Source: Clostridiaceae bacterium
Lineage (GTDB): Bacteria; Bacillota; Clostridia; Saccharofermentanales; UBA5734
NCBI GenBank assembly: GCA_012523135.1
Contig: JAAYJD010000058.1
Location: 8,251 to 72,250, forward strand
Length of the DNA stretch: 64,000 bases
Reading direction: 5' to 3'
Below the pieces are notes generated by a model. It was not told the DNA's origin. It saw only the letters and a list, made by a program, of their open reading frames with translations, and searched no databases. Both the position numbers and the translations under genes were made by a program. Shown in pieces: positions 9,605-57,243 of the stretch; the first letter of the stretch is position 1; every line of letters starts with the position of its first letter.

Positions 9605-9639
9605 AAAAAAACAGCCCTGTCCCCTGAGGGACAAGACTG
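9605..9639 (-). terminator. T-box-controlled intrinsic terminator
   Basis: On the minus strand: CAGUCUUGUCCC-UCAG-GGGACAGGGCUG, a 12-bp stem including G-U pairs, followed by seven U (9611-9605). Confidence 0.8.
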
Positions 9640-13775: not shown

Positions 13776-14033
13776 ATGATGGGTTTTGGTTATGGAACCG
13801 GTTGGATTTACATGCTCATCGGCGGCCTGCTGATCGTAGGCTTGATCGTTTTGATCGTTTTTTTGCTCGTCCGTGCGAACAGCGTTTCTGGCAAATCGGG
13901 TGCTACCGCTCCGCCTGATGCAAACCAAACGGATACCCAGCGCGCATTGGCGATATTAGCGGAGCGCTATGCCCGAGGCGAAATCAGCGATGAAGAATAT
14001 CAGCATAAAAAATCCGAAATCACACGATTGTGA
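13776..14033 (+). CDS. Small membrane protein with a C-terminal SHOCT domain
   Basis: Start chosen at the ATG at 13776 (GGAGGTG 7 nt upstream). One TM helix (WIYMLIGGLLIVGLIVLIVFLLV), then LAERYARGEISDEEYQHKKSEI. Confidence 0.75.
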   Translation: MMGFGYGTGWIYMLIGGLLIVGLIVLIVFLLVRANSVSGKSGATAPPDANQTDTQRALAILAERYARGEISDEEYQHKKSEITRL

Positions 14034-14079
14034 CTGATGGCCGCGCGCTTCCGTGATCGGTGATCAGGAGGTAAAAGCG

Positions 14080-22287: not shown

Positions 22288-22359
22288 GGCTCTTCCTCCC
22301 CTTTTTGCTATCTGGTGCGGACGCGACGCACCGCATGACCCTCTAGGGTGATCTTCATC

Positions 22360-22388
22360 ATCTTAGCAGAGTATTCATTCGATCGCAA
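22360..22388 (-). promoter_or_regulatory. Sigma-A-type promoter of the B12-binding/ABC/DMT operon
   Basis: On the minus strand: TTGCGA (22388-22383), 17 nt, TAAGAT (22365-22360). Confidence 0.55.
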
Positions 22389-23702
22389 TCATGCCCGTTT
22401 CGGCGGCAGCATGACCGCAGCCCGGCTCTCGACGGGACCGGACGGCGGCGGCAGGCGCCGGGCCAGGCCGACCGCCAGGGCTGCGGCGGCCAGGCTGGCG
22501 GCAAAGACCGGCCGGTAACCGGCCGCCTGGATGACCAGGCCGGACGCCAGCGTCAGGAACGTGAACGGGAGTGTCACCAGGTTGCTGATCAAGAGGTAAT
22601 GCGTCCGGTAAGCATCACCGGCGATATCGATGGTGTAGTTCATGTAGCCGAGCCAGGCCGCCATGTTGATGCCGTTGATCAGGGCCAGCGGCGCGAAAAG
22701 CCAGACAGGCACAGCGGACAGGACCCCCAGGGAAAGCAGCAGCGCTGACCCGGCCAGCATTAGGCCGAGGGATTGGGACAACAGGATCACCTGCTGGTTG
22801 CCCAGCCGGTTGCTGACCTGTCCCCAGAGCAAACCGCCCAACAGGCTGCCGATGATCTGGAGGTATACCAGCGTCGACACCTGCTGCGGCGCAAAGCCCA
22901 GCTGCTCCTGGGCGAAGAGGACGATAAACGGCGCCAGCATCAGGCTGACCAGGGACAGGCTGCGGATCGTGACTACCCGCCGGAAGAGGCTGTCCCGGCT
23001 TAACAGGTGCGGCAGGCTGCGGTAATACTGCCGGGGCGACTGCTGCGCCAGCTGAGGCGGATGCGGCAAGTCGCGCGTGAAGGACATCACCAGGGCGGAC
23101 AGCGTCAGGACGGCGCCCGCTGCGCCGAACAAGACGGCGAAGCGCTGCCCGTCCGCCAGGCGCGGGTGGTCCAGCAGCGTCTTGACGATCGTGCCGGCCG
23201 CCAGGGCGCCGATCCCGCCGAACAGCTGCTGGCTGCCCAGCAGCAGGCCGCGCCTGCCGGGGACAACCGTCCGGCTGAACAGTTCCGCCCAGGGAACGAG
23301 AATCAGGCCGTCGCCACCGCAGAGCAGCGCGTAGACCAGGAAGAACACACCTACAGCCAGGGACGCAGGCAGGTCCAGCAGCAGCACCGGGATCATCACG
23401 AAGGGCAGCGGCCGGATCAAAAACATCACCAGGGTGATGTAGGAGGGCAGGTTGCGCAGGCGGCGGATGTGGGGGCCGACCAGGAGCTGGACCAGGATCG
23501 ATGCGGCCGCGTTGATCGTCGCGGCCAGGCCGGCCAGGCGAACACTGCCGGTATAGGCATAAATGAAGACCGGGATGACCGCGTTGACATCGATGAAGGA
23601 CATGCCGCTGAAAAACAGGCTGCCTTCGGCCAACAGCGCGCCGTAGTTGCGCTTGCGCAGCCGCTGTTCATCCATCTGATGCTGTCGCCGGCCCGCACCC
23701 AC
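22389..23702 (-). CDS. MFS transporter
   Basis: 437 aa, about 12 TM. The start is uncertain: GTG at 23702, or ATG at 23675. Confidence 0.8.
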   Translation of the reverse strand: MGAGRRQHQMDEQRLRKRNYGALLAEGSLFFSGMSFIDVNAVIPVFIYAYTGSVRLAGLAATINAAASILVQLLVGPHIRRLRNLPSYITLVMFLIRPLPFVMIPVLLLDLPASLAVGVFFLVYALLCGGDGLILVPWAELFSRTVVPGRRGLLLGSQQLFGGIGALAAGTIVKTLLDHPRLADGQRFAVLFGAAGAVLTLSALVMSFTRDLPHPPQLAQQSPRQYYRSLPHLLSRDSLFRRVVTIRSLSLVSLMLAPFIVLFAQEQLGFAPQQVSTLVYLQIIGSLLGGLLWGQVSNRLGNQQVILLSQSLGLMLAGSALLLSLGVLSAVPVWLFAPLALINGINMAAWLGYMNYTIDIAGDAYRTHYLLISNLVTLPFTFLTLASGLVIQAAGYRPVFAASLAAAALAVGLARRLPPPSGPVESRAAVMLPPKRA

Positions 23703-23708
23703 CGGCCG

Positions 23709-24872
23709 TCACGATGGCAGGCCGCGCTTTTCCAGGCGCAGGAGCAGCAGCGCCACCAGCGGCAGGATCAGCAAAAGCGCGATGTTGATGGCAAAGCCCA
23801 GGCGGAAACCGGCCCGGTCGGCCACGAATCCGGTCAGCCAGGGAACGGCCGTGGCGGAAAACGTCATGGCCAGCGACAGCATGCTGGATACCGTGCCGCC
23901 AAGCTCCGGATACAGGCGATTGGCATACGCCAGGCTGGTCGGATGCAACCCGGCCAGGAAGACGCCGGCCAGCAAAACCCCCGCACCGATCAGAAGCGGC
24001 GGGTTCGCGTAGATGGCAAGCGGATAAAAGGCCAGGCTGCCCAGGGCGCAGAGCAGGATCAGGCGGGAATAGCCGATTTTCTCAGCCAGAATGCCGCCGC
24101 TGAAACGGCCGGCCGCCAGGCCCAGGTAGAAGAGCGAGACCATGCCTGCGCCAAGCAGGAGCGGAAAGTCGGCCTGCTTCAGATAGGTGTTGATCCAGTT
24201 GACCAGGCTGGTTGCGGTCCCGTTGTAGAGAAACGAAACGGCAAAAAGAAGCAGGAAAAAGGGGTTCAGAAAAATCGTGCTGATCCGGATAGCCGGTCTG
24301 GCTCCGGACTTTTGACCCTGAACCGGCGGCAGGCGCAGAAAAATAAGTCCCAGACCGTAGAGGCTCCAGATCAGGCTGCCGGCTCCGAAAACCAGCCGCC
24401 AGCCATCGGGCGAAGCCAGCACCAACCCGGCCGCGACGGGACCGAGCATCGCGCCGACACTGTAGACGCCGTGCAGCGAATTCAGTGCCACCCCCCGCTT
24501 TTGCGCATGAACCTGGGCGATCAGTGCGTTGATCGCGGGGTTGACCAGGCCGGACGCCAGGCCGGCCAGGCCGAAGCAGATGATGATCAAAAGCCAGCTG
24601 GCCGAAAATCCGACCAGGCCCAGGAAGAGGCCCTGAAGCAGGCAGCCGGTGACCATGACCGGCTTGCGCCCGATGCGGTCGGACAAGGTTCCGCCCAGCA
24701 AGGTACCCAGAAAAGCCCCGGCCGAACGGGCAGCAAAAACAGCGCCGGCCGATGCCAGCGTCAGCTGGAACGTTTGAATCAGCGCGGGCAGGGCCGGCGC
24801 CAGCGTAATCGGGACAAACCCAAGGAAAAAATAGCCGGTCAGGCCAACCCAGGTGATCGTGCGCTTGTTCAT
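23709..24872 (-). CDS. MFS transporter
   Basis: 387 aa, 12 TM, with an MFS loop motif (LSDRIGRKPVM). ATGA-type overlap with the formamidase gene. Confidence 0.85.
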   Translation of the reverse strand: MNKRTITWVGLTGYFFLGFVPITLAPALPALIQTFQLTLASAGAVFAARSAGAFLGTLLGGTLSDRIGRKPVMVTGCLLQGLFLGLVGFSASWLLIIICFGLAGLASGLVNPAINALIAQVHAQKRGVALNSLHGVYSVGAMLGPVAAGLVLASPDGWRLVFGAGSLIWSLYGLGLIFLRLPPVQGQKSGARPAIRISTIFLNPFFLLLFAVSFLYNGTATSLVNWINTYLKQADFPLLLGAGMVSLFYLGLAAGRFSGGILAEKIGYSRLILLCALGSLAFYPLAIYANPPLLIGAGVLLAGVFLAGLHPTSLAYANRLYPELGGTVSSMLSLAMTFSATAVPWLTGFVADRAGFRLGFAINIALLLILPLVALLLLRLEKRGLPS

Positions 24873-35582: not shown

Positions 35583-36464
35583 TCATTTCAGGCTGAGCAA
35601 GACCGCTCCGACCAGACCGAGCGCAAAAGCCACCACACCGGATGGCCGGACTTTATCTTTGTAGACAATCAGCGAAAACAGCCAGAGGATCATCAGCAGG
35701 CCACCGGCATTGAGGGGAAAAACCACCACCGCCGGCACGGTACGCAGCGCCAGCAGCTGGAACAGATTGCCGCCGCCGGTGGCCACGCCGACCCCCAGGG
35801 CGCAGAGGCCGAGCCACTTGGGATCGGCTGTCCAGGTCGAGAAGTCCTGCTTTCGGAGCAGCAGAATCGCGACGATCAGCCAGGAAATGGCCGCGACGGT
35901 GAGAAAGCCCCAGAACGTAAACGCGGCGGAATCCGCCTCCGGAAAATACCAGGAAAGGGAGCGCTTCAGGATCGTCAGGACGCCGTTGCAGAGCGTTGTC
36001 GCCAGCGTCAGCAAGAACCAGCGCAGTGTCAGGGCCTGCCGGTTCTGCTGCAGCTTCTTGTCACGCGGAGCCGACAGAACCGTCACCGCCAGCATGCAGG
36101 CGATGCCGATCAGCTTGGTCGGCGTGACGGTCTCGTCGAAAAACAAGATGCTGTAGACGACCGGGAAGATCATGTAGATGTTGTTGAGCAGGATGGTCGC
36201 ACCCATCGGCCCCGCGGCCAGGGCGGCCTGCAGCGTGACGATCGTCAGGATGTAAACCACGCCGAAGACGCCGGCCAGTACCAAAACGGGACCATCCAGC
36301 GGGCGGGCCCGGCCGGCCAGGGCCAGGATCAGGGCCACGATCGACATCGCCAGGGCGTCGAGCAGAATGATTCCGGCCAGCCGGCTGGGAAAGCGGCGGG
36401 CAAAAGTCTTGTTGGTGATGTTCTGCAGGCTGTACAGCAGCAGAGAGAGGATCTGGTAACCCAA
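35583..36464 (-). CDS. DMT superfamily membrane transporter (EamA/sugar-transport-like)
   Basis: 293 aa, about 10 TM. Apparent TTG start with GAGG 6 nt upstream. It is the last gene of the Gfo-TIM-DMT operon. Confidence 0.7.
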   Translation of the reverse strand: MGYQILSLLLYSLQNITNKTFARRFPSRLAGIILLDALAMSIVALILALAGRARPLDGPVLVLAGVFGVVYILTIVTLQAALAAGPMGATILLNNIYMIFPVVYSILFFDETVTPTKLIGIACMLAVTVLSAPRDKKLQQNRQALTLRWFLLTLATTLCNGVLTILKRSLSWYFPEADSAAFTFWGFLTVAAISWLIVAILLLRKQDFSTWTADPKWLGLCALGVGVATGGGNLFQLLALRTVPAVVVFPLNAGGLLMILWLFSLIVYKDKVRPSGVVAFALGLVGAVLLSLK

Positions 36465-36524
36465 GCGTTTCGCCTCGCAATCCTTCAGCCAGCCCGGCTG
36501 GCCGGATCAGAATCAGGTCGATAC

Positions 36525-37316
36525 TCAGTCTTCGAGCAAGGCCCACATCTTGAGGCAGACCACTTCGACCGGCTCGGTCAGGCCGCACTCAAAGACGACA
36601 AAACCGGTGTAGCCGGTGTCGCGAATCGCCTTGAAGACGTTCTTGTAGTTGATCTCGCCGGTTCCCGGCTGCTTGCGCCCGGGTACGTCGCCGACATGGA
36701 TGTGGCCGATGTGCCGGATGTTGGCGCGGATGTTGTTGATCAGGTTGCCTTCGGTGATCTGCTGGTGGTAGACATCGTAGAGCACCTTGACCATCGGGCT
36801 GCCGACTTCCTCAATGACCGCCACCGACTCCGCCGTTGTGGTCAGGAAGTAGCCCATGTGGTTGACCAGGATGTTCAGCGGCTCGAGCACCAGCCGGATG
36901 TTGGCCGCTTCAGCCAGGGGCGCCGCAGCCTTGAGCGCCGCGACAACCTGGGCGTGCTGTTCGGCGCGCGCAACGCCGGCGATCTCGTTGCCGGTTGTCA
37001 CCACGATGTTCGTGCAGCCAAGCACCTGGGCGGCGGCGATCGTTTCCCGGATCGCCGTGACAAAGGCGTCTTTGGCGTCCGCGTGGACGATGCCGTGGGT
37101 GTTGGCGATCAGGGCCTGCTGTGCGGGGTCGCTGGCGTGAAACAGGATCGCCGAAACGGCGACGCCGGTGCGGTCGATTTCCCCGCGCAGGCGCTGCAGG
37201 TCGAGATGGGCCCAGTTGAGAATTTCGATGGCTTTGAAGCCTTGCTGGCGGGCCAGCTCGAGCTTGCCGTATTCCTCGCCGGAAAACCAGGAGTTATGGA
37301 CGGTTAATGTAAACAT
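36525..37316 (-). CDS. Sugar phosphate isomerase/epimerase (xylose-isomerase-like TIM barrel; hydroxypyruvate-isomerase-like)
   Basis: Start trimmed to 37316 (MFTLTVHNSWF; AAAGGAGG upstream). Contains the segments LVLEPLN and HIGHIHVGDVPGR. Confidence 0.85.
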   Translation of the reverse strand: MFTLTVHNSWFSGEEYGKLELARQQGFKAIEILNWAHLDLQRLRGEIDRTGVAVSAILFHASDPAQQALIANTHGIVHADAKDAFVTAIRETIAAAQVLGCTNIVVTTGNEIAGVARAEQHAQVVAALKAAAPLAEAANIRLVLEPLNILVNHMGYFLTTTAESVAVIEEVGSPMVKVLYDVYHQQITEGNLINNIRANIRHIGHIHVGDVPGRKQPGTGEINYKNVFKAIRDTGYTGFVVFECGLTEPVEVVCLKMWALLED

Positions 37317-37347
37317 GATCCGATGGCCTCCTTTGCTTTTTTCACAA

Positions 37348-38325
37348 TCAGTCCAGGACAATTTCCTTGCCGGTGGCGATCGACTCGTTGCAGGCCAGGG
37401 TCAGGGCCAGCGACTTGCAGGCGTCGGCATAGGGGGAGCGGATGATCGACGGGTTGTTGGTCTTGACGGCGTCGAGGAAGGTCCGGTCTTCGGTGACGCC
37501 TTGATCGATCTCCTTGCGGTGCTGTTCGACATAGCTGCCGGTGTCCAGCTCGACGGACTGGCGCAGGACGTAGCGGATGTCCGCGTCGGCACAGCGGATG
37601 TGCAGCCCGTTCTTGTTCGGCACGTTGCGGCCCAGGTAGCAGCCGGTGAACAGCGTGGCGATGACCTTATTCTTGAACGTGATGACCGCGGACGAATAAT
37701 CATGCAGGTCATAGCCCTCGCGCTGCACGATGCCGCGGGCCGCGGCGCAATAGACCCGTTCGGGTTCGCCGAACAGGTAGCGCAGCATGTCGAACAGATG
37801 GATGTTCTGCTCGACGATCTGGCCGCCGCTGGTCGCGTAGGTCGGCCACCAGTAAACGCCCGGAATACCGCCCAGCCAGGCACCGTCGACCAGGCCGACC
37901 TGGCGGCCCTTGAGAAACTCGCGGGTCTTTTCGATGACGTCGAGGTAGCGGTCCTGGAACCCTACGGCCGTGATGATGCCGGCTTTTGCGACGGCGTCCC
38001 GGATCTTCGTTGCCAGTTCCATGGAAAGGGCCATCGGTTTTTCGACCAGGAAGTGGATCTTGCGCTTGATCGCCTCGAACTCGATGGTGCCGTGCTGGTC
38101 CGGCGGTACGCAGATGTAGAGCACATCCGGTTTGGCCTCGTCCAGCATCTGGCAATAGGTGTCGAACACGGGCGCTCCGCCGACCTGGGCGGCCTTTTCA
38201 CGCGCCCGTTCCGGCCGGATGTCCATAAACCCGACATAGTCGACATCGTCGAACTGCACCAGGTGGCTGAGATGGAAATTGCAGATGCCGCCGCATCCGA
38301 CAAACGCTGCTTTTATCCGATCCAT
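37348..38325 (-). CDS. Gfo/Idh/MocA family oxidoreductase
   Basis: 325 aa. N-terminal Rossmann motif (IKAAFVGCGGI) and EKPMAL. RBS AAGGAGGG. Confidence 0.9.
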   Translation of the reverse strand: MDRIKAAFVGCGGICNFHLSHLVQFDDVDYVGFMDIRPERAREKAAQVGGAPVFDTYCQMLDEAKPDVLYICVPPDQHGTIEFEAIKRKIHFLVEKPMALSMELATKIRDAVAKAGIITAVGFQDRYLDVIEKTREFLKGRQVGLVDGAWLGGIPGVYWWPTYATSGGQIVEQNIHLFDMLRYLFGEPERVYCAAARGIVQREGYDLHDYSSAVITFKNKVIATLFTGCYLGRNVPNKNGLHIRCADADIRYVLRQSVELDTGSYVEQHRKEIDQGVTEDRTFLDAVKTNNPSIIRSPYADACKSLALTLACNESIATGKEIVLD

Positions 38326-38472
38326 TTAATTCCCTCCTTGATGACCTTAGATGCGATCAGGCGCACGCCTGCCGCTATGCATACAAAAGCACAATCGGAG
38401 CAGTCCGTCAACATACGCCGGCAGAGGCGCGTAAAATGAGCATTTTGTCCATATAGTTGGCGATATATGACC

Positions 38473-38501
38473 TTGCATTTCCAAAACAAGCATGGTAAAC
38501 A
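38473..38501 (+). promoter_or_regulatory. Candidate promoter of the plus-strand Gfo/Idh/MocA gene
   Basis: TTGCAT (38473-38478), 17 nt, then TAAACA preceded by TGg. The -35 region is embedded in TGACCTTGCATTT, which resembles the 12-mer repeated upstream of the QueG-like operon. Confidence 0.4.
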
Positions 38502-38557
38502 TAGGAGTTGAGGCACGGCAGGCCGTCCCTCGAGAACAAAACAGTTAGGAGATCACT

Positions 38558-39610
38558 ATGATTCGCGCAGGCATTCTTGGCTACGGATACATGGGCCATG
38601 TCCATACGCAGAAAATCGCCCCGATCGCCGGCATCGATGTCTTTTCCGTACACGATATCGACCCGGCAAAAAAAGCTGAAGCTGGTAAGGCCGGTTATTC
38701 TTTTTTTGCCGACCGCACCCTGTTCCTGGCCCAGGCGGACCTGGACCTGGTCATCATCGCCACGCCCAACCAGTTCCATCGCGACTACGCGATTGAAGCA
38801 CTGCGGGCCGGCAAGCACGTGATCTGCGAAAAGCCGGTCACGCTCAACACGGACGAGCTCGACGCGATCCTGGCCGCCGCCCGGGAAAGCGGAAAGATTT
38901 TCACGGTCCACCAGAACCGGCGCTGGGACACCGACTACCTGATGCTGCGTCAGATCATCGCGGACGGCACGCTCGGCAGACCGGTCGCGGTTGAATCGCG
39001 CGTCCTGGGCGAGCGCGGCATCGTCTTCGGCTGGCGGGCGGACCCGGCCTATGGCGGCGGCATGCTCTATGACTGGGGCGTCCACCAGGTCGACCAGATC
39101 CTGCAGCTCTTCCCCGACCGCAAGGTGACGCGCGTTTTCGCCCAGCTTTGGTCAGTCAACACGCTCCAGGTCGATGACTACTTCAAACTGGAGCTGGTCT
39201 TCAACGACCAATGCTCGGCCCACGTCGAGTGCGGCGTCTTCGCTCTTGAAAAACTGCCGCGCTGGTTTGTCTACGGCAGCAGCGGCACCCTGAAGATCGA
39301 CGACTTCAGCGCCAAATCCGGGCGCATCTCCAAGATCAACAACCAGTACACGGTCGAAGTGTCCGAGGGCGTCGATCCGGTTGTCGGCTCCAGCCGCACC
39401 ATGGCGCCCCTGCGCCCGGAACAGATCCAGCATGTTCCGCTGCCCGCCCCGGTCGACGCGGCCAACGCCTTCTATGAGAACATCGTCCTCGCCTGCCAGG
39501 ATCCGGACCAGCTCGCCGTCAAGCCGGACAGCGTGCGCCGCACCATGCAGGTGATCGACGCCGCGTTCGCGTCTGCCCGCGCGCGCCAGTCGATCGATGT
39601 CCTGATCTGA
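38558..39610 (+). CDS. Gfo/Idh/MocA family oxidoreductase
   Basis: 350 aa. Motifs IRAGILGYGYMG and CEKPVTL. RBS AGGAG. Confidence 0.9.
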   Translation: MIRAGILGYGYMGHVHTQKIAPIAGIDVFSVHDIDPAKKAEAGKAGYSFFADRTLFLAQADLDLVIIATPNQFHRDYAIEALRAGKHVICEKPVTLNTDELDAILAAARESGKIFTVHQNRRWDTDYLMLRQIIADGTLGRPVAVESRVLGERGIVFGWRADPAYGGGMLYDWGVHQVDQILQLFPDRKVTRVFAQLWSVNTLQVDDYFKLELVFNDQCSAHVECGVFALEKLPRWFVYGSSGTLKIDDFSAKSGRISKINNQYTVEVSEGVDPVVGSSRTMAPLRPEQIQHVPLPAPVDAANAFYENIVLACQDPDQLAVKPDSVRRTMQVIDAAFASARARQSIDVLI

Positions 39611-39635
39611 ACCGAACAGCAAGCACCATATGGCT

Positions 39636-39676
39636 GCGGCCGCGATTCGTAACAGAATCGCGGCCGCTTTGATTTT
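39636..39676 (+). terminator. Intrinsic terminator between convergent genes
   Basis: Perfect 13-bp stem GCGGCCGCGATTC / GAATCGCGGCCGC with a 6-nt loop, followed by TTTGATTTT on the plus strand. Confidence 0.8.
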
Positions 39677-39706
39677 CCTCAGCATGTCCGGCGGGCCCGG
39701 CTTTGT

Positions 39707-40531
39707 TCAGATATCGTGCAGATCCAGACCCCAGGGTTCGCGGCGCCGAAACGCGGTGGCGTAACGGTGTTCCAGCTTGCCGGAGGCATCCAGGTGGGCC
39801 AGGCAGGCCCGGCCGCAGGCAGCCGTCAGGCGGTTGGGCATCGCCTCGCTGTACGTCGTGTCCGGGAAGGCGCCGTTCGGGCAATAGAGACATTTCTGCC
39901 GGTTGACTTCGGCAACTGTGCGCGTGACACCGCAAATGGTAACATCAGTCGTTTTGCTGGTATCGATGGCACCCAGCGGGCAGGCGGCGGCACATTTGGC
40001 GCATTGCTCGCGGTCACAGACCGTGCCCGTGAAAACCGGATCCGGTTCAATTTCCAGGTCCGTGATGATCAGGCCCAGTGCCTGGCGGGTGCCGAACTGG
40101 GGTGTCAGAAGCAGCCCGCAGTAGCCGATTTCGCCCAGACCGCAGGCGACCATCGCGTAGCTGAGATCCGGGTAGACATTGGGCGCGACTGAACCGGTGC
40201 GGAACACGACACCTTCCGGCCAGCGCTCGGCGGCCATCGGGCTCGACGGCACGGCGACCCCGCCCTCATCTTCCAGGAAACGGGCCAGCGTGTACATGTA
40301 GTGGGCTCCGATCAGGCGGCCGGCGCGGGTCCACAGCGTGCCCTCCTCGGTACCGCGGAACACGCCGCGCGGAATCTCCTGTGCGCACAGGACGATCGAG
40401 CGGGCCTGGGGGAAGATCGAGAGCGGATTGCGCTGCGGTTCAACATCACGGAAACGCTCGGCCGGCGCGACGCCGACGGCGTCGATGCCGCTTCTCTTGG
40501 CGTATGCCAGCAGCTCTTGCTTACTCAACAT
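39707..40531 (-). CDS. QueG/reductive-dehalogenase-superfamily-like Fe-S protein, paralogue 1 (274 aa)
   Basis: The ORF-track entry 39707..40780 is trimmed to the ATG at 40531 (MLSKQELLAYAKRSGIDAVGVAP; AAAGGGGG upstream). The core is ACGLGEIGYCGLLLTPQFGTRQALGLIITDLEIEPDP, then CDREQCAKCAAACP, then CLYCP ... CGRAC. Confidence 0.75.
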   Translation of the reverse strand: MLSKQELLAYAKRSGIDAVGVAPAERFRDVEPQRNPLSIFPQARSIVLCAQEIPRGVFRGTEEGTLWTRAGRLIGAHYMYTLARFLEDEGGVAVPSSPMAAERWPEGVVFRTGSVAPNVYPDLSYAMVACGLGEIGYCGLLLTPQFGTRQALGLIITDLEIEPDPVFTGTVCDREQCAKCAAACPLGAIDTSKTTDVTICGVTRTVAEVNRQKCLYCPNGAFPDTTYSEAMPNRLTAACGRACLAHLDASGKLEHRYATAFRRREPWGLDLHDI

Positions 40532-41534
40532 GGTTCTCGCCCCCTTTAGCGCTGTCGTCCTTCTGCAGGTAATAGGCCCGCTTGTCCTTGCCGATCCGGC
40601 CGGTCTGCTTGAGATGCTCGTAGCAGGACTGGATGCAGCCGTACGCGCCGCAGATGCTGCCGGGTCGGCCGCCCTGGCCCAGTTCATCGAAGCCGTTGGC
40701 CACCGTCGACAGGTAACGGGAGCGCTGGGACAGCGCACGGCCAAAGTTGATCGCTTCGAACCAGCCCATGGTCTGTTCATCGATGTTCATCTTGAAACCG
40801 GGCATGTCCTTCTTGACAAAAGGCGAGGCCAGTTCGTTGAGGCCCCAGTGCGTCAATTTGCACTTGCCCAGGTCGACGTCGCCCCACTCGAAGACGCGGT
40901 CCTCGATCTTGACCGACACTTTTTTATGTTTGCTGTACAGGGCATGGCCGGGGCAGTCGCGGACGCAGTGCAGGCAGCGGTCGCAGATGCTGCGCTGCAG
41001 CAGCGGATCCGGTTCCAGCTCGGCGTCGGTCAGGAAGATCTCGAAACGCTGGCGCGGTCCGAACTCGGGGGTCAGGAACACCTTGGACCAGCCCAGCTCG
41101 CCCAGGCCGGCGGCCGCAGCCGTGATGCGCATGTGCAAAACGACATTGGACGGCATTTTGCCTTCGGCGACCGGCGGACGGTGCGGCGGGGCCTCGTGGG
41201 GCAGAAACGTATGGCCGCCAGGTGAAACGACGGTCTCGTAACCGTGCGATTCCACGAACTGGCGCGTCATGCGCATGGCATTGCCGAGCGGGCCGTAGAT
41301 GCCGGTACCGTAGCCGTAGATCCAGTAGGTCGACCAGTCAGCATTTTCGCGGACGCCCTTATACGAGCCTTCCAGGATACGCCCGGCCAGCACGACGACC
41401 GATTTCGTCTTCGGATAGATGTTAAGCGGATGCGTCTCGGGCGGCGCCTGCATCAGGCGCGAAAGCGGCGCGATGCCGACCAGGTCGGCGCCCGCTTCCC
41501 GGGCCACTTTTTTGACCATTTCACTGGTTAACAT
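40521..41534 (-). CDS. QueG/reductive-dehalogenase-superfamily-like Fe-S protein, paralogue 2 (337 aa, divergent)
   Basis: Start chosen at 41534 (MLTSEMVKKVAREAGADLVGIAP; GGGGGA upstream). The core is AAGLGELGWSKVFLTPEFGPRQRFEIFLTDAELEPDP, then CDRCLHCVRDCP, then a late CGAYGCIQSC. Confidence 0.75.
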   Translation of the reverse strand: MLTSEMVKKVAREAGADLVGIAPLSRLMQAPPETHPLNIYPKTKSVVVLAGRILEGSYKGVRENADWSTYWIYGYGTGIYGPLGNAMRMTRQFVESHGYETVVSPGGHTFLPHEAPPHRPPVAEGKMPSNVVLHMRITAAAAGLGELGWSKVFLTPEFGPRQRFEIFLTDAELEPDPLLQRSICDRCLHCVRDCPGHALYSKHKKVSVKIEDRVFEWGDVDLGKCKLTHWGLNELASPFVKKDMPGFKMNIDEQTMGWFEAINFGRALSQRSRYLSTVANGFDELGQGGRPGSICGAYGCIQSCYEHLKQTGRIGKDKRAYYLQKDDSAKGGENHVE

Positions 41535-41548
41535 ATCTCGTGATCCCC

Positions 41549-42448
41549 CTATCTTTCCCACGTTTCAAGTCGCCACGGTTCGCCGTCCCGGAACGGGTTG
41601 ACATACTTTTGCGTCAGGCGGCCGGTCTTTTCCAGGTGGTTCAGGCAAGTCCGGCTGCAGACAGCGGTGGCAATGTTGGGCACGTTCCGGCGGGTCAGAG
41701 CGGTCGACGTTTCGACGATCTTGGGCTGGTTGCCCGAGAACTCGACCATCAGCTCCTCCTGGCCGACCTTGTTGATGAAGTCCGGTGCCGCGCCGTTAGG
41801 GCAGAGGCGGCACAGGTTGTAGTTGATCTCGGCCAGGACGGTCTGGCGGCCGCAGATGTCAAGCGTGACCGTCTTGTCCGGGTTGATCGAGTGGGCCGGG
41901 CACACGGCGATGCATTCGCGGCAGGCCAGGCCGTCGCAGAGCGTGCCGGCATAAATGGGGTCCGGTTCCAGCTCGAGCTCGGTCAGGATCACGCCCAGGG
42001 TGTTGCGGTTGCCATACTGAGGCGTCAGCAATTGCCCGAGCAGGCTGATTTCACCTAACCCGGCGGCCACGGCCGCGTATTCCAGGTTGATGGTCACGTT
42101 GTACATGGGGCGGTCCGGGGCAACCGGGCGGCTGCGCGGGGCAACCTTGGGGAAGTGGGCCAGGTAGGGCACGGCCTCGAAATGGGTCTGCTGCTCGATG
42201 GTGCGGGCCATATCGAGCACCAGGCGCTGGTCGAGGTACTTGCTGGCGAAACTCCAGAGCGTCCCCTCTTCCACACCGCGGTAATTGCCGCGCGGAATGT
42301 CCGCCCCGATGACAATGACCGAACGGACCTCCGGCAGGATGGAGGCCGGATGGACATTTTGGGGGAGTCCGTCGAAGCGTTCAGCGGACGCGACGCCAAA
42401 CAGGGTGAGACCGATGCTGCGCGCATAGTCCCTCAGCATTTCCTTCAT
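41549..42448 (-). CDS. QueG/reductive-dehalogenase-superfamily-like Fe-S protein, paralogue 3 (299 aa)
   Basis: Start chosen at 42448 (MKEMLRDYARSIGLTLFGVAS; GAGGTG upstream). The core is AAGLGEISLLGQLLTPQYGNRNTLGVILTELELEPDP, then CDGLACRECIAVCP, then CRLCP ... CSRTC. It is closest to paralogue 1. Confidence 0.75.
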   Translation of the reverse strand: MKEMLRDYARSIGLTLFGVASAERFDGLPQNVHPASILPEVRSVIVIGADIPRGNYRGVEEGTLWSFASKYLDQRLVLDMARTIEQQTHFEAVPYLAHFPKVAPRSRPVAPDRPMYNVTINLEYAAVAAGLGEISLLGQLLTPQYGNRNTLGVILTELELEPDPIYAGTLCDGLACRECIAVCPAHSINPDKTVTLDICGRQTVLAEINYNLCRLCPNGAAPDFINKVGQEELMVEFSGNQPKIVETSTALTRRNVPNIATAVCSRTCLNHLEKTGRLTQKYVNPFRDGEPWRLETWER

Positions 42449-42529
42449 GTTATCACCTCGAATTGAATCGGTGCGCCCGGCGCGCCCGCCGGGTGCGGCA
42501 GTCTTGTTCACATCCTAAAGATATGCTAT

Positions 42530-42584
42530 GATCTTGCTGTTTAAAAGCCTTGTTATTGCCGATTTATAGCTTGATCTTGCTGTC
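42530..42584. promoter_or_regulatory. Candidate AraC operator: direct repeat of TGATCTTGCTGT, two copies 43 bp apart
   Basis: An identical 12-mer occurs at 42530-42541 and 42573-42584. Both lie in the 170-bp divergent region between the AraC gene and the QueG-like operon. Confidence 0.45.
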
Positions 42585-42618
42585 TTGAGCCAAGCACAAG
42601 GTCAAAGAAAGAGGGTAC

Positions 42619-43572
42619 ATGCACGACAGCGTCAATCGGGACCTTGCGGCACCGTCCGGCGACGGCCGCCGTTTTCACCTCGCCGCCAGTCCATCGGTCG
42701 AACGGCCTGTTCCAAGCCTGCCTGACCTGGATTTGCCGCTGGATCACCTGTCGCCCACCATCGCGGTTATGTCGCTGCACAACTCCCGTAACCGCAAGGG
42801 GCAGCTGTCTTTGGACCGTTACACCCAGCCTAGGGCCGTTCATCTCTATGAAATCGAATTCTTCACCCAAACCGGCGGCGTGGCCGTTGTCGATGACTGC
42901 CAGTACCCGATCTCCAGGGGCGATGTCCGGTTTCACCGGCCCGGCCAGATCGTCTGGAGTCATGTCCACTACGAATGCTACGCCATGCGACTTGCCCTCG
43001 ACGGCCGGCTGCCGGAACCCGGCGCGTATCAGCCGCTTTTTCACAATACATACCTAGACGCGATTCCCTGCTTCATGTCCGTGTCGTCACCTGAATCCTA
43101 CGCGCGGCTGCTCGATGACATGCTGCGGTTGTGGATCAACCCGCAGCCCGGCTCTGAACTGCTGCTCAAGAGCAAGACCCTTGAGCTGATCTGCCTGCTG
43201 TACAAGGACGCTGTCCAGCTGAACGTGCTGGGCGGCTCGCAGCGGCTTACGGACACTGTGACACGGGCCATGGACTACATTGCGGCGCATTTTTGCGAAC
43301 CCGTCCGGCTGACGGACATCGCCGCGGCGGTCAATCTCAGCCCGTATCACTTTCACCGCCAGTTCACCCGGGCTGTCACCATGACGCCCCTGGCCTACCT
43401 GACCCGGGTACGCATCGAGCAAGCCCGCGAGCTGCTGCTGACCACCCGTATGCCGGTCAGTGAAATTGCCCCGGCTTGCGGGTTTGAAAGCCCGTCTTAT
43501 TTTACCCGGGTTTTCCGCGGTCTGACCGGCCAGACCCCCGGCATGTTCCGCCGCCACCGCCAGCTGTTTTGA
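42619..43572 (+). CDS. AraC family transcriptional regulator (cupin sensor plus dual HTH)
   Basis: 317 aa. Cupin-like N-terminal half, and a C-terminal AraC HTH (LSPYHFHRQFTRAVTMTPLAYLTRVRIEQARELL ... SPSYFTRVFRGLTGQTP). Confidence 0.9.
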   Translation: MHDSVNRDLAAPSGDGRRFHLAASPSVERPVPSLPDLDLPLDHLSPTIAVMSLHNSRNRKGQLSLDRYTQPRAVHLYEIEFFTQTGGVAVVDDCQYPISRGDVRFHRPGQIVWSHVHYECYAMRLALDGRLPEPGAYQPLFHNTYLDAIPCFMSVSSPESYARLLDDMLRLWINPQPGSELLLKSKTLELICLLYKDAVQLNVLGGSQRLTDTVTRAMDYIAAHFCEPVRLTDIAAAVNLSPYHFHRQFTRAVTMTPLAYLTRVRIEQARELLLTTRMPVSEIAPACGFESPSYFTRVFRGLTGQTPGMFRRHRQLF

Positions 43573-52756: not shown

Positions 52757-53638
52757 TCAGGGCGCGTCTGCCAGGACTGAGCGCGCATATTCGGTCATCG
52801 TCATCTCCTGGCGGCTGCGGAACAGGCGCGAAAAATAGTGCGGATTGTCGTAGCCCAGGCGCAGGGCGATCTGGGTGAAGTTCAGTTCGCCCTCGGCGAC
52901 CATGCGCCTGGCTTCGCTGATCTTGAGCTCGATCAGCTGGTCGATGACGCTGGCGCCGGTCGCCGCCTTGAACGCCTTTTTGACCTGGGCTACGCTGCAA
53001 CCCATGGCCGCGGCGACCTCGGACAGCGTCAGGCGGTCCTGGACATGGTCTTCGAGAAAGGCCTGGATGCGTTCGGCCAGCGCCCGGCTGGTGCCGGGCG
53101 GGGCCGTGTTGAGCGCCCGTTGCTGGATTTTGACGGCATGGCCCTGCCGGTACAGCCGGATCAGCATCTGCTCGAGGCTGGTGCGGACCAGCTGCCCGGA
53201 GCCAAAGGCAGTCCCCGGAAAATCCGGCGGTTCGTCCTCCGCCGGCAGCAGGCTGCCGTCGACCTCGCGCAGGGCGGCTTGCAGGCCGGCGCGCGCCGCG
53301 GCATCGAGCAGCAGGATCTTGTGCGTGAAATACGACATGCACGGGCTCTCACTGGCAAAGGCGCAGACAATGAAGTTGGCTTTTTCCCGGCTGCAGGCCT
53401 GCACGGCGTGGAACTCGCCCGGACAATGGAAAGCCAGCTCGCCGGCCCGCAGCTGGTACTGCTGGCCGCCCGCCGTTATCAGCATCTGGCCTTTGTCGAT
53501 GTAGATGAATTCCCAGAAATCATGCGTCTCGCCGGCGAAGCTGAAATTGCTGGGGCTCCGGAAATAGAACAGGCTGATCAAGCGGGTGATCGACAAGACA
53601 TTTTCCAGGATATGGCCGTAATAATCGATGTTCGCCAT
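52757..53638 (-). CDS. AraC family transcriptional regulator (cupin plus HTH)
   Basis: Trimmed to the ATG at 53638 (MANIDYYGHILE; GGAGGTG upstream). Cupin-like half (HDFWEFIYIDKG ... FHAV) and a C-terminal AraC HTH (NPHYFSRLFRSRQEMTMTEY). Confidence 0.9.
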   Translation of the reverse strand: MANIDYYGHILENVLSITRLISLFYFRSPSNFSFAGETHDFWEFIYIDKGQMLITAGGQQYQLRAGELAFHCPGEFHAVQACSREKANFIVCAFASESPCMSYFTHKILLLDAAARAGLQAALREVDGSLLPAEDEPPDFPGTAFGSGQLVRTSLEQMLIRLYRQGHAVKIQQRALNTAPPGTSRALAERIQAFLEDHVQDRLTLSEVAAAMGCSVAQVKKAFKAATGASVIDQLIELKISEARRMVAEGELNFTQIALRLGYDNPHYFSRLFRSRQEMTMTEYARSVLADAP

Positions 53639-53811
53639 CGGGCACCTCCGCCTGCGCCGCGCGCCAAGGCCAGTATCCTGCACTATCGGTCACCTGTCAA
53701 GAATCAATCAGTTTCCGTAGCCGATCGTGCACAAACGAGAGCCCTTTGTTTATTTTTCCGCGCCTGAAAAATGATATGATGAAAACAAGAGAAGTGACCT
53801 GGAGGTGCATT

Positions 53812-54669
53812 ATGAAAAAAGGCATCAGCATCTGGTCCTTTACCGGCCAACCCCTGGAGACATGCTTTCAACTGGCGCGCAAGGCCGGCTTTGATGGTGT
53901 CGAAGTCGCCCTGGACGAGCAAGGGCCGATCCACCTGGCATCGACCCGCCAGGATATGGCGGCCGTCCGGAACGCGGCCGACCGGCAAGGCGTCGACGTG
54001 ACCAGCGTCGCCAGCGGCCTCTACTGGACCTACTCCCTGACCGCGGACGAACCGGATGTCCGGGCCAAGGCCCGCTCGATCGTGGTGCAGCAGCTGCGGG
54101 TGGCTTCCTGGCTGGGCTGCGACACGATTCTGGTTCTGCCGGGCAGCGTGACCTGCGGGTTCGGCCCCCAGGCGCCAGTCGTTCCCTACGATGTCGCCTA
54201 TGACCGTTCCCTGGAGGCGCTGCACGCGCTGGCCCCGGTCGCCGCCGACCTCGGCGTCGCCATCGGCCTGGAAAACGTCTGGAACAACTTTCTGCTCTCC
54301 CCCCTGGAAATGCGCAGCCTGATCGACGCGATCGACAGCCCGGCGGTCGGCGCCTATTTCGATGTCGGCAATGTGCTGGCCTTCGGTTATCCGGAGCAGT
54401 GGATCCGTATCCTCGGGCCGCGCATCCGCAAGGTGCACATCAAGGACTTCCGCCGCGGCGTCGGCGGCTTGAACGGTTTCGTCGACCTGCTGGCCGGCGA
54501 CGTCGATTTCCCGGCGGTCATGGCCGCGCTCGCCGCCGTAGGCTACGACGACTATCTGACCGCCGAGATGTCGCCCTACCGGCTGTATCCCGAGACCATC
54601 CTCGTTAATACGTCATCGGCCATGGACCGGATCCTGGGCAGGACCGGCCTGGCTGACAAGGAGGTGTGA
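53812..54669 (+). CDS. Sugar phosphate isomerase/epimerase (xylose-isomerase-like TIM barrel)
   Basis: Trimmed to the ATG at 53812 (MKKGISIWSF; GGAGGTG upstream). Contains the segments GFDGVEV, IGLENVWN and YFDVGNV. Confidence 0.88.
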   Translation: MKKGISIWSFTGQPLETCFQLARKAGFDGVEVALDEQGPIHLASTRQDMAAVRNAADRQGVDVTSVASGLYWTYSLTADEPDVRAKARSIVVQQLRVASWLGCDTILVLPGSVTCGFGPQAPVVPYDVAYDRSLEALHALAPVAADLGVAIGLENVWNNFLLSPLEMRSLIDAIDSPAVGAYFDVGNVLAFGYPEQWIRILGPRIRKVHIKDFRRGVGGLNGFVDLLAGDVDFPAVMAALAAVGYDDYLTAEMSPYRLYPETILVNTSSAMDRILGRTGLADKEV

Positions 54670-54672
54670 TCC

Positions 54673-55704
54673 ATGCTGCATGTTGGGATGATCGGCTTTG
54701 GCGGCATCGCCCAGGCCCATCGGGCCGCTTACGAGAAGCTGGCCAGAGAATGTGCGCCCGTCAAGCTCCTGGCGGCCTGCGACATCGACCCGGAGCAATT
54801 CAAGCGGCGGATCGAGATCAACCTGGGGGCCGCGGATGTCGACCCCGCCTCGAAGCTCGCCTGCTACACCGATCTCGAGGAGATGCTCGCGCGCGTGCCG
54901 TTTGACCTGATCGACATCTGCCTGCCGACGCCCTTGCACGCCCCCTACGCGATCGACATGCTGCGGCGCGGCTACCACGTGCTGAGCGAAAAGCCGATGG
55001 CCCGGACGTCCGGTCTGTGCCAGGCGATGGTGGACGCAGCTTCCAAGGCCCGCGGCCAGCTCATGATCGGGCAATGCCTGCGCTTCTTCCCCCAGTACGA
55101 GTACCTGCGCGACCTGGTGCAGCAGGAAACCTACGGCAAGGCCATCAGCGCTGTCTTCGAACGGACCAGCGGCCCGCCGCGCTGGGCCTGGGAAAACTGG
55201 TTCATGGACTATGAACGCTCAGGCGGCTGCCTTTTGGACATGCATATTCACGATCTGGACATGGCCCGCGCCCTGTTCGGCGAGCCGGAAGCGGTTTCCT
55301 GCGTCACCCAGGATGTCCAGTCGCGCATGGATGTCGTCCACAGCACCCTCTATTACGGCGACGGCAAGCCGGTCTTCGCCCTGGGCGACTGGTCGATGGA
55401 AAGCTGCCCGTTCCAGCATGGCTACCGGATCGGCTTCGAAAAAGCCACCGTGATCTTTGACGGCAGCAAGGTCACCGTTTATCCGCGCGGCGGCGACAGC
55501 TTCGATGCCGACCTGCCGTACGAGCAGGGCGGCATCGAGCGCGAGATCCGCTACTTCACCGGCCTTTTGGAATCCGGCCGGCCAAACGAGATCAACCCGC
55601 CGCAGAGCGCCCTGCGCTCGGTCCTGCTGGCAGAGGCGCTGCGGGACAGCGCGCTGGCGGGCGGGACACGCGTCACGCTTAAAAACCAGGAGGTGAGCAG
55701 ATGA
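54673..55704 (+). CDS. Gfo/Idh/MocA family oxidoreductase
   Basis: 343 aa. Motifs VGMIGFGGIA and SEKPMA. Confidence 0.9.
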   Translation: MLHVGMIGFGGIAQAHRAAYEKLARECAPVKLLAACDIDPEQFKRRIEINLGAADVDPASKLACYTDLEEMLARVPFDLIDICLPTPLHAPYAIDMLRRGYHVLSEKPMARTSGLCQAMVDAASKARGQLMIGQCLRFFPQYEYLRDLVQQETYGKAISAVFERTSGPPRWAWENWFMDYERSGGCLLDMHIHDLDMARALFGEPEAVSCVTQDVQSRMDVVHSTLYYGDGKPVFALGDWSMESCPFQHGYRIGFEKATVIFDGSKVTVYPRGGDSFDADLPYEQGGIEREIRYFTGLLESGRPNEINPPQSALRSVLLAEALRDSALAGGTRVTLKNQEVSR

Positions 55705-56525
55705 AAATCGGATCTATTATCGGCTATCGTCCCGGCACGGACCTGGCGGCCGCCTTCGGTCAGGCGCGCCAGCTCGGCCTGGACAGCTGTCAGCTGAACA
55801 TCTGGGACAGCACACTCTTCAGCGAGGACCAGACCCAGGTCGTCCGGCAGGCCCAGGAGAAAACCGGGCTTGAAATTTCCGCCTTGTGGGCCGGCTGGAG
55901 CGGGCCGAAGGAATGGAACTTCACCGGCGGGCCGGCAACGCTCGGCCTCGTGCCCCCTGCCTACCGCGGCCAGCGTCTCCAGGAGCTGCTGGCGGCCAGC
56001 GCCTTCGCGGTTCACATCGGCGTCACGGATATCGTGACCCACGTCGGTTTTCTGCCGGAAAACCCGGACGACCCCAACTACTCGGGCGTCGTTTGCGCGC
56101 TGCGCCACCTGGCCCAGGTCATGCAGGGGCGCGGGCAGTTTTTCTTGTTTGAAACCGGCCAGGAAACACCGGTCACCCTGCTGCGCACCATGCAGGATAT
56201 CGGCACCGCCAATCTCGGTGTCAATTTCGACATGGCCAACTTGCTGCTGTACGGCAAGGCGAATCCGGCGGACGCACTGGACATCCTGGGTGCTTATGTG
56301 CGCGGGGTTCACTGCAAAGACGGCGAGTACCCGACCGACGGCCGGCGTCTCGGCCATGAAAAGGCGCTGGGCCAGGGTCGCGTCGACCTGGCGCAGATCA
56401 TCCGTAAGCTCAAAGAGATCAACTACCAGGGTCACTTGACCATCGAGCGGGAGATTTCCGGACCAGAGCAAATCCGGGACATCCAGGCGGCCCGCGACCT
56501 GCTGCTGCAGCTGCAGGGGGCCTGA
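55701..56525 (+). CDS. Sugar phosphate isomerase/epimerase (xylose-isomerase-like TIM barrel)
   Basis: 274 aa with an ATGA overlap with the Gfo gene. Contains the segments FLFETGQE, NFDMANLL and VHCKDG. Confidence 0.85.
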   Translation: MKIGSIIGYRPGTDLAAAFGQARQLGLDSCQLNIWDSTLFSEDQTQVVRQAQEKTGLEISALWAGWSGPKEWNFTGGPATLGLVPPAYRGQRLQELLAASAFAVHIGVTDIVTHVGFLPENPDDPNYSGVVCALRHLAQVMQGRGQFFLFETGQETPVTLLRTMQDIGTANLGVNFDMANLLLYGKANPADALDILGAYVRGVHCKDGEYPTDGRRLGHEKALGQGRVDLAQIIRKLKEINYQGHLTIEREISGPEQIRDIQAARDLLLQLQGA

Positions 56526-56538
56526 CAGGGAGGTTGCC

Positions 56539-57243
56539 ATGCGCGTACTCGCAATCGGGTGTCATCCCGATGATCTGGAAATAGGCTGTTTCGGAACATT
56601 GGCCCGCTGCGTGCAGCGCGGCGATACCGTCACCATCTGCCACATCGCCAACGGCAGCCGCGGCCATGTGCTGATCGACCCGGTCAGCCTGCGTGAAATC
56701 CGGCTGGAAGAGGCCCGGGAAGCCGGGCGGCGGATCGGGGCCCAGGTCCTGACGCTGGACGTTCCGGACCTGGAAGTCAACAGCCGGGACCCGGAACAGA
56801 TCAAGGCCCTGACCGAAGTCGTCCGTAAGGTCAAGCCGGACCTGGTCATCACCCACAGCCCGCAGGACTACATGCAGGATCACCTGGAGGTCCAGAAACT
56901 GGCCTTCGACGCCAGTTTTTCCGCCAGCATCTGGAACCAGCAGGACCGGGCGGCCGGCGTCGCCGCCATCACGCCGCTGTATTACATGGATACGCTGGCC
57001 GGCGTCAATTTTCTGCCCGGCGAATATGTCGATATCTCGGATGTCATCGACATCAAGCTGGAAGCGCTCGGCTGCCACCACAGCCAGATCGACTGGATGC
57101 GGGATCACGATAAGATCGATTTTATCGATTTCGTCGCGACCTGCTCCAAGTTCCGCGGCCTGCAGTGCGGTGTCCGCTATGCCGAAGGCTTCCAGAGCGC
57201 GGCGGTCTGGCCGCGCCTGCCGACGAGCCGGCTGCTGCCCTGA
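56539..57243 (+). CDS. PIG-L/LmbE family N-acetyl-sugar deacetylase
   Basis: 234 aa. N-terminus [20 protein letters not shown], followed by a later [10 protein letters not shown] segment. Confidence 0.88.

Follow-up and report, generated by a model that had tools for sequence, protein, structure and literature searches.

To our knowledge, dehalogenation and epoxyqueuosine reduction are the only established activities of the class-III B12/[4Fe-4S] enzymes, and we know of no enzyme for reductive C-O/C-X cleavage in anaerobic sugar catabolism. The families that perform these two reactions, the reductive dehalogenases PceA/RdhA (4uqu, 8q4h) and NpRdhA (4ras, 6zy0) and the epoxyqueuosine reductase QueG (5d6s, 5d08), are the closest described counterparts of a trio of proteins, hereafter T1, T2 and T3, encoded in the genome of a Clostridiaceae bacterium (GCA_012523135.1, contig JAAYJD010000058.1). 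The trio genes lie next to a divergently transcribed araC-type gene in an 8-kb stretch (35583-43572) of the 64,000-nt segment that we analysed, referred to as the window in the rest of the text. The same stretch encodes two Gfo/Idh/MocA dehydrogenases (Gfo1 and Gfo2), a xylose-isomerase-like TIM-barrel protein (TIM) and a drug/metabolite transporter (DMT). The pairing of such dehydrogenases with such a TIM barrel is shared with DgpA/B/C, YcjQRS and LgdA/B, none of which includes a B12/Fe-S reductase. We favour, with moderate confidence, the reading that the stretch holds an AraC-controlled heteromeric corrinoid-type reductase operon beside separately inherited keto-sugar units, and not one conserved pathway. 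The araC gene and the divergent T1-T2-T3 operon are a self-contained module (Unit 1), while Gfo2 and Gfo1-TIM-DMT (Units 2 and 3) are ordinary oxidoreductase, epimerase and transporter genes of a kind that is repeated in this genome.

The trio proteins are paralogues sharing 28-42% identity (T1 is 42% identical to T3 and 28% to T2), and none of them reached the Pfam gathering score for any family. T1 gave a sub-threshold Fer4_6 match only (16.9 versus 25 bits), and neither the dehalogenase family PF13486 nor DUF1730 (PF08331) matched any of the three proteins in Pfam. Scores against the NCBIfam models were 39.6-45.7 bits over ~75 residues for RDH (TIGR02486; 44 bits for T1; cut-off, 160.35 bits) and 23.7-30.8 bits for QueG (TIGR00276; cut-off, 200 bits). 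Sequence similarity to PDB entries was confined to ~70 residues following the pattern GLGE..TPxFGxR..CxxCxxCxxxCP, the best match being PceA, with an E value of 3.7e-10 for T2 and 1.7e-15 for the profile. AlphaFold monomer models were made for T2 (predicted local distance difference test (pLDDT) score of 80.7) and T3 (pLDDT 89.8) and compared with the PDB using Foldseek. The T2 model matched PceA/RdhA best (E 3.5e-8), followed by QueG (E 3e-7), in agreement with its best sequence matches, while the T3 model matched QueG best (E 8e-10), then PceA (E 1e-8), NpRdhA (E 2e-7) and MMACHC (E 2e-3). At E <= 0.001, the matches of both models consisted exclusively of PceA/RdhA, QueG and NpRdhA (E 1e-6 to 1e-10, probability 1.0); MMACHC came next, at E 2e-3 to 2e-2. 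The models of T2 and T3 thus adopt the nitroreductase-type cobalamin-binding core fold common to RdhA, QueG and CblC/MMACHC.

Eight Cys residues are invariant in the small subunits, the type to which T1 and T3 belong (in T3: C171, C176, C179, C183, C213, C216, C238 and C242), and eight are invariant in the large subunits, represented by T2 (T2-337 numbering: C184, C187, C190, C194, C225, C295, C300 and C304). Eight per subunit are enough ligands for the two [4Fe-4S] clusters of a ferredoxin domain. The first motif, C-x(2-5)-C-x2-C-x3-CP, was found in 176 of 193 family members, whereas the second, which reads C-x2-C ... C-x3-C in the small subunits and C ... C-x4-C-x3-C in T2, differs from that of RdhA. 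Each subunit is predicted to be a minimal nitroreductase-type core followed by a two-cluster ferredoxin domain, the same domain order as in QueG, with which the T proteins also share an AG(L/I)G...TPxxG segment and the first CxxCxxCxxxCP motif. T1, T2 and T3 have all kept an intact GLGE, while the vestigial core of NpRdhA has a degenerate AGLARV. T2 additionally carries an invariant FGPRQR that aligns to FGPNVR of PceA and GPRSK of NpRdhA, so that an Arg of T2 occupies the place of R305 in PceA and of K488 in NpRdhA; K488 was placed in the alignment through the sequence difference between 4ras and 6zy0 (K488Q variant). Among the trio this Arg is unique to T2, the equivalent residue being Ala in T3 and Thr in T1. 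It was present in 65 of the 65 large subunits with a locatable motif and was variable in small subunits.

The class-III cobalamin architecture known from QueG and RdhA (PMC4646009) is present in the trio proteins in a minimal form. Like QueG, they are cytoplasmic and free of a twin-arginine translocation (TAT) signal, their N-termini opening directly on the core (MKEMLRDYARSIG..., MLTSEMVKK...). Unlike QueG, they lack the C-terminal helical-repeat tRNA domain, the chains ending ~30-60 residues past the last Cys, and the D-Y-H/Asp130 active-site motif, the DYH element (as defined in PMC4646009) being absent from all three sequences. They also differ from RdhA in their size (274-337 aa versus 464-700 aa), and neither a TAT signal, nor an adjacent RdhB anchor, nor a fused reductase was found in the trio sequences or their neighbours AraC and Gfo2. 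A preliminary description of this stretch, made from its letters and open reading frames (ORFs), had presented the trio as three reductase-type Fe-S proteins, which the predicted folds uphold at the level of the RdhA/QueG superfamily. Its label 'QueG-like' is apt for the superfamily fold and fails for the QueG family proper (24-31 versus 200 bits).

More than 3072 homologues were retrieved with the trio profile, all of them unnamed or automatically labelled 'epoxyqueuosine reductase' or 'ferredoxin'. At least 579 relatives were found with the T2 profile in GTDB species genomes, in Bacillota, Lentisphaerota/Victivallales, Armatimonadota, Verrucomicrobiota, Spirochaetota, Bathyarchaeia, WS1, Omnitrophota, Ratteibacteria and other taxa, the cultured Oligosphaera ethanolica DSM 24202 being one of the carriers. 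At E <= 1e-30, a library of 1.84 billion cluster representatives yielded 261 clusters (50% identity). Our literature searches returned RdhA, QueG and DgpA papers only, with no description of the trio family and no characterised homologue. The trio is an uncharacterised, widespread, multi-subunit minimal branch of the RdhA/QueG superfamily, and this is the new part of the finding. The 'RdhA-like' clades of a cold-seep study were considered as a possible earlier sighting of the family and set aside, as those clades require CXXCXXXCP and more than 300 aa.

Subunit order was examined in 80 loci (79 sampled loci plus the window; conservation-ranked ORF calling with hidden Markov models of small and large subunits). 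A small-subunit gene with a large-subunit gene directly behind it on the same strand was the universal core; the order was small>large in 41 of the 80 loci and small>large>small, the arrangement of the window, in 23. A few loci contained 4-6 paralogues. Natural large-small (T2-T3) fusions were found (P0001, 596 aa; P0002, 591 aa; L017, 612 aa), and among the top 150 cluster representatives some 40 consist of a single chain of roughly 770 aa with three core modules (examples of about 750-850 aa are P0246, P0248, P0298 and ~40 others, and also L017:14460-17000 and L084:6958-9174). Their layout is [core+Fe-S] - [degenerate core] - [core+Fe-S], with a weak QueG_DUF1730 match at the start of the middle module. 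The vestigial second core of NpRdhA aligns to the trio profile, and its pair of vestigial and active cores would be a single-chain analogue of the small+large pairing proposed here. Taken together, the subunit order, the close spacing of the trio genes, the fusions, the three-module chains, the vestigial core of NpRdhA and the Arg kept in large subunits suggest that the subunits form a heteromer in which T2 would be the main catalytic subunit. In contrast to QueG, which is a single housekeeping gene, T proteins come in small+large(+small) sets encoded in sugar loci, and one genome often has several such loci. The loci with 4-6 paralogues (L034, L042, L044, L065 and L075, and L006/L007 from Dictyoglomi) also encode SBP_bac_5 binding proteins and a protein of 340-357 aa that matches Peptidase_U32 weakly; L034 and L007 encode long (~410 aa) AraC regulators.

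The regulator follows the trio beyond the reach of the sugar genes. The sensor domain of AraC is conserved in the trio-adjacent AraCs of loci L011, L012, L014 and L015 and weakly in L017, and the ACAGCAAGATCA direct repeat of the araC-T1 intergenic region is kept in both copies in L011 and L012, as variant copies in L014 and as one copy in L013. As sensor and repeat accompany the trio into more distant relatives than the sugar genes, we regard araC and the trio as the conserved unit.

The sugar genes behave differently. The arrangement trio-Gfo2-Gfo1-TIM was found only in the window species (L001-L004) and in L012-L014, whose T2 proteins are 80-94% identical to that of the window. These three loci share with the window more than 15 kb of synteny in unrelated genes, with an identical order of the genes for RNase J, MscS, an M18 peptidase, a helix-turn-helix (HTH) protein, MatE and an aldo-keto reductase, so the adjacency of the sugar genes, lying inside this general synteny, reflects recent ancestry. 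Even among these relatives the block is not intact: an AAA_14/DUF4143 gene is inserted between T3 and Gfo2 in L014, and outside the window species L012 is the one locus where DMT accompanies TIM, the gene being absent from L013, L014 and L090. The trios of L016 and L017 (73-74% T2 identity) have no Gfo, TIM or DMT genes nearby and are flanked by genes for SBP_bac_1, a Mur ligase, an M42 peptidase and an aldose epimerase. Conversely, L090 has a Gfo1-TIM pair (74% TIM identity) and no trio within 9 kb, and TIM orthologues sharing 59-67% identity are surrounded by unrelated genes. The window itself contains a second cluster without a trio, at 52757-57243, which comprises an AraC with a cupin sensor (52757-53683, minus strand), a TIM barrel (53746-54669), a Gfo/Idh/MocA protein (54673-55704), another TIM barrel (55701-56525) and a PIG-L deacetylase (56539-57243), which suggests that such clusters are common in this genome. 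The single conserved, compact pathway of the preliminary description is therefore not what we found, Gfo and TIM adjoining the trio only in near relatives that share synteny; loci such as L016/L017 without sugar genes and L090 without a trio largely dissolve the neighbourhood, and the 'dedicated' transporter shrinks to a gene kept in the window species and one relative.

Across the family, no protein family dominated the operon partners of T modules: among 97 proteins we counted 5 Gfo, 4 SBP_bac_5, 4 AraC, 4 beta-helix proteins and 3 sulfatases. Single neighbours included glycoside hydrolases GH2 and GH4, DUF4838/GH67N-like proteins, carbohydrate esterases, U32-like proteins, Zn-dependent alcohol dehydrogenase, a glycyl-radical enzyme and M19/M55 peptidases, and the regulators were of AraC, IclR, LacI or GntR type, AraC being the one most frequently adjacent. 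In 15 crudely dereplicated clades, AraC directly flanked the T module in 7 and Gfo was adjacent in 4, while Gfo and TIM were both found within 4 genes of T in 2. The neighbours thus vary and are mostly carbohydrate-related, so that carbohydrate utilisation is their common theme, in contrast to the organohalide respiration served by RdhA. The small-large-small trio of O. ethanolica (L023, 6625-15404) stands beside a GH2 gene and has, on its other flank, genes for a short glycyl-radical enzyme (pyruvate formate-lyase (PFL)-like, 691 aa) and a Zn-alcohol dehydrogenase.

The identity of the sugar enzymes themselves was examined by comparison with the PDB and NCBIfam. Gfo2 matched an uncharacterised protein (3e18, E 3e-67) and, over its full length, DgpA2 in complex with isoorientin (9m37, E 3.3e-58), whereas Gfo1 gave lower-scoring matches to 3ezy (E 1e-17), DgpA1 (9m3d, E 2e-16) and DgpA (E 2-3e-16). 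TIM matched psicose 3-epimerase (E 3e-19), YgbM (E 9e-15) and the 3-keto-glucoside 4-epimerase YcjR (E 1e-12); its 27 PDB matches at E <= 1e-5 were all ketose 3-epimerases, Hyi/YgbM or YcjR, with no DgpB or DgpC among them. Its best NCBIfam match was hydroxypyruvate isomerase (Hyi), at 168 bits versus a cut-off of 353. None of the NCBIfam cut-offs for LgdA (50-65 versus 650 bits), IolG (107-113 versus 355 bits) or IolE (43 versus 290 bits) was reached, and the sugar genes scored far below those of the BT_2158/2159 models. These matches support Gfo and TIM as keto-sugar-type enzymes, as had been proposed, and speak against a TIM of DgpB/C or LgdB type. Whereas DgpA is partnered by DgpB and DgpC, this locus has one TIM gene, of the Hyi/ketose-epimerase type, and no DgpB/DgpC or CarB/C-type lyase pair, a gene set that we take to be more like a YcjQRS-type oxidise-epimerise-reduce module than a C-glycoside lyase system. 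The statement that no described pathway has this gene composition stands, literature searches having found none. The cobamide-remodelling enzyme CbiR belongs to the same Pfam superfamily as TIM (PMC7733943); a CbiR-type role was set aside, TIM being closest to Hyi/OtnI and the ketose epimerases.

Several observations weigh against an independent corrinoid reductase module, some of them favouring a tighter bond with the sugar genes and others a different cofactor or a known function. According to the first alternative, which we hold to be improbable though worth keeping in view, the eight genes form an integrated pathway in which Gfo1 and Gfo2 would oxidise a glycoside or cyclitol, TIM would epimerise, isomerise or eliminate, the trio would reduce the product (by dehydroxylation, ether cleavage or enone reduction, for example) and DMT would import the substrate, all within one AraC regulon. 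Besides the adjacency of these genes in the window species and L012-L014, it can draw on the distribution of Gfo, which makes up 9.8% of the genes at +/-1 from T modules, 4.3% at +/-2, 2.7% at +/-3-4 and 1.9% at +/-5 or beyond; AraC, at 9.8% at +/-1, shows the same decay with distance. An unrelated clade, Victivallaceae, has an operon GntR/LacI - M19 - ~1190-aa protein - Gfo - small - large - GH4 - DUF4838 - TIM, so that, independently of the window lineage, a T module shares an operon with a TIM barrel and two enzymes of NAD-dependent sugar oxidation; this keeps a looser functional link alive. Of the co-occurrence that the preliminary description had sought, what remains is thus this enrichment of Gfo and this operon, in the face of a gene set that is not conserved beyond near relatives. 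The promoters hint in the same direction: the gfo1/gfo2 intergenic region contains a block, AAtGCAAGGTsA, whose GCAAGGT core is invariant in the window and L012-L014 and matches GCAAGRTCA, an element present twice upstream of T1. A similar element in both promoter regions means that the sugar genes may be true partners here. GCAAGRTCA occurs 8 times in the window versus 1.24 expected from shuffled sequences, a control that ignores codon structure. Codon bias could cause the excess; 3 copies lie in the T1 and gfo intergenic regions and the other five inside coding regions (20061, 25840, 47043, 55466 and 63157), and a shared operator of the T1 and gfo promoters is suggestive only. Against the integrated pathway stand the general synteny in which the adjacency of the window clade is embedded, the separation of trio and sugar genes in L016/L017, the foreign gene at the L014 junction, the poorly conserved DMT, the occurrence of Gfo1-TIM without a trio in L090, the mere 2 of 15 clades with both Gfo and TIM near T, the frequency of Gfo/TIM/AraC clusters in this genome and the convergence of the units on a terminator-like hairpin. 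The carbohydrate context as a whole could merely reflect carrier genomes rich in carbohydrate-active enzymes (CAZymes).

Corrinoid binding by the trio is itself proposed by analogy with QueG and RdhA (PMC4646009), to which the similarity is limited, with template modelling (TM) scores of 0.4-0.55 and a sequence alignment of ~70 residues, and heteromer formation is argued from gene order and fusions. Class-III enzymes share a single Tyr above the corrin, Y101 in QueG and Y246 in PceA (PMC4646009), and its counterpart was not located in the trio sequences: the small subunits have no invariant Tyr, and the invariant Y70 and Y75 of T2 lie in a Tyr-rich insertion found in 46 of 90 large subunits. 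The trio might thus have kept the RdhA/QueG scaffold and its Fe-S clusters while binding a flavin, or no organic cofactor at all, and would then be a complex for electron transfer or redox sensing. Other members of the nitroreductase fold bind flavin mononucleotide (FMN) (PMC4646009), NpRdhA shows that such cores can turn vestigial, and the 25 most frequent families among the 97 operon neighbours include no corrinoid-related family. We nevertheless think such a corrinoid-free complex quite unlikely, since the strong structural matches are cobalamin enzymes throughout, with no FMN nitroreductase among them, GLGE is intact in all three subunits in contrast to the degenerate AGLARV, and T2 retains the RdhA-type Arg. 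A membership in one of the known families, as cytoplasmic reductive dehalogenases acting on organohalides or as extra QueG copies acting on tRNA, would explain why RdhA and QueG are the best sequence and fold matches and agrees with the 'epoxyqueuosine reductase' label that some public sources give to homologues. It is very hard to reconcile with scores far under both curated cut-offs, the lack of Pfam Dehalogenase and DUF1730 matches, the missing TAT signal, RdhB, QueG C-terminal domain and D-Y-H motif, and the multiple paralogues and loci per genome in carbohydrate contexts with sugar-type regulators, and we give it scant credence.

Under the reading that we prefer, an AraC-controlled corrinoid-type reductase inherited apart from its sugar-gene neighbours, small and large subunits would pair into a core dimer, as NpRdhA does in one chain with its vestigial and active cores. 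A low-potential donor would supply electrons that travel by way of the [4Fe-4S] clusters in both subunit types to a base-off corrinoid, located mainly in T2. Co(I) would then attack or reduce a C-X bond in a small cytoplasmic substrate; this bond might belong to an epoxide, an ether, an ester, a halide or an activated hydroxyl, and the reduced cofactor would bring about a two-electron reductive cleavage or elimination. The reductive direction and the class of substrate are, like the heteromer, predictions; our best guess from the gene context is that the substrate is probably carbohydrate-derived, and the AraC regulator would sense it or a precursor. In this lineage, Gfo2 and Gfo1-TIM-DMT may feed the reductase or use its product, the trio being independent of them. 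The organism uses corrinoids, as indicated by a corrinoid protein with a PF02310 B12-binding domain encoded at 21628-22287, beside two major facilitator superfamily (MFS) transporters (region 21628-24872). This corrinoid protein may belong to a methyltransferase-type system.

The trio family sits in loci for sugar utilisation, in anaerobes that degrade glycans in digesters, guts, the rumen and sediments. Being widespread and multi-subunit, with no Pfam model and no characterised member, and found in sugar loci, it is a candidate both for corrinoid reactions of a new kind during carbohydrate breakdown and for an additional B12 requirement of anaerobic glycan-degrading communities. A bolder version, which we advance with considerable reserve, is that the T module is a third functional branch of class-III B12 enzymes, a heteromeric, ferredoxin-driven corrinoid reductase for the reductive cleavage of C-O (or other C-X) bonds in carbohydrate-derived intermediates in anaerobic glycan degraders of many phyla; candidate substrates would be keto-sugars produced by Gfo- or GH4-type NAD enzymes. 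The value of the family would rise sharply if corrinoid binding and a carbohydrate substrate proved true. The unit worth studying is araC with the trio and not the 8-kb block, and the trio of O. ethanolica DSM 24202 and, for expression, the natural T2-T3 fusions offer tractable starting points.

Features of the 8-kb stretch, with coordinates in the window.
Feature	Coordinates	Strand	Remarks
DMT/EamA transporter	35583-36464	-	PF00892, E 9e-12; last gene of the Gfo1-TIM-DMT operon
TIM, xylose-isomerase-like TIM barrel	36525-37316/37361	-	PF01261, E 1.5e-40; Hyi/ketose-3-epimerase type
Gfo1, Gfo/Idh/MocA oxidoreductase	37348-38325	-	PF01408 + PF22725; heads the minus-strand sugar operon
Conserved block AATGCAAGGTCA	38466-38478		Divergent gfo1/gfo2 promoter region; may be a regulator half-site
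Gfo2, Gfo/Idh/MocA oxidoreductase	38558-39610	+	Monocistronic; DgpA2/3e18 type
Intrinsic-terminator-like hairpin	39636-39667	+	Between the stop codons of convergent Gfo2 and T3
T3, small subunit, 274 aa	39707-40531	-	Class-III-cobalamin-like Fe-S reductase fold
T2, large subunit, 337 aa	40521-41534	-	Likely catalytic (fold and invariant FGPRQR)
T1, small subunit with insertion, 299 aa	41549-42448	-	First gene of the trio operon
Direct repeat ACAGCAAGATCA, two copies 43 bp apart	42529-42580	-	araC-T1 intergenic region; candidate AraC operator
AraC-family regulator	42619-43572	+	HTH_18, E 4e-26; divergent from the trio operon

ORF, Pfam and NCBIfam analyses returned the eight genes at the positions and in the families given by the preliminary description, whose gene order and divergent/convergent arrangement we likewise recovered. 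The T2 and T3 genes share 11 nt, and a gap of 14 nt separates T1 from T2. The ORF containing T3 reaches 40780, 83 codons past the true start and into T2, an artefact of high GC content; homologues and gene callers place the true start at MLSKQELL (40531). For TIM, gene callers place the start at 37316 (263 aa), and a longer ORF reaches 37361. Long antisense ORFs are abundant throughout this high-GC window. The hairpin between Gfo2 and T3 has a 13-bp stem with 10 G-C pairs and is followed by TTTGATTTTC, a T-run; together with the strands and spacing of the genes, it indicates at least three transcription units besides araC. All eight genes have a GC content at third codon positions (GC3) of 0.76-0.84, as is normal for this genome, so the region is not a recent foreign island, and horizontal transfer of the locus was ruled out on these grounds. 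An Rfam scan of the window found no cobalamin riboswitch or other RNA element at the locus; its sole match was a T-box leader at 9624-9853 (minus strand; RF00230, 100.7 bits).

Two further regions of the window stood out. A low-GC stretch at 13611-17615 (GC 0.53; GC3 0.56-0.69 versus ~0.8 elsewhere) encodes a P-type ATPase and a multicopper oxidase and is probably an acquired copper-resistance island. The minus strand encodes, at 58359-60845, an 828-aa protein of the coenzyme A (CoA)-disulfide/persulfide reductase type, in which a pyridine-nucleotide-disulphide oxidoreductase is fused to rhodanese, TusA and DsrE-like domains.

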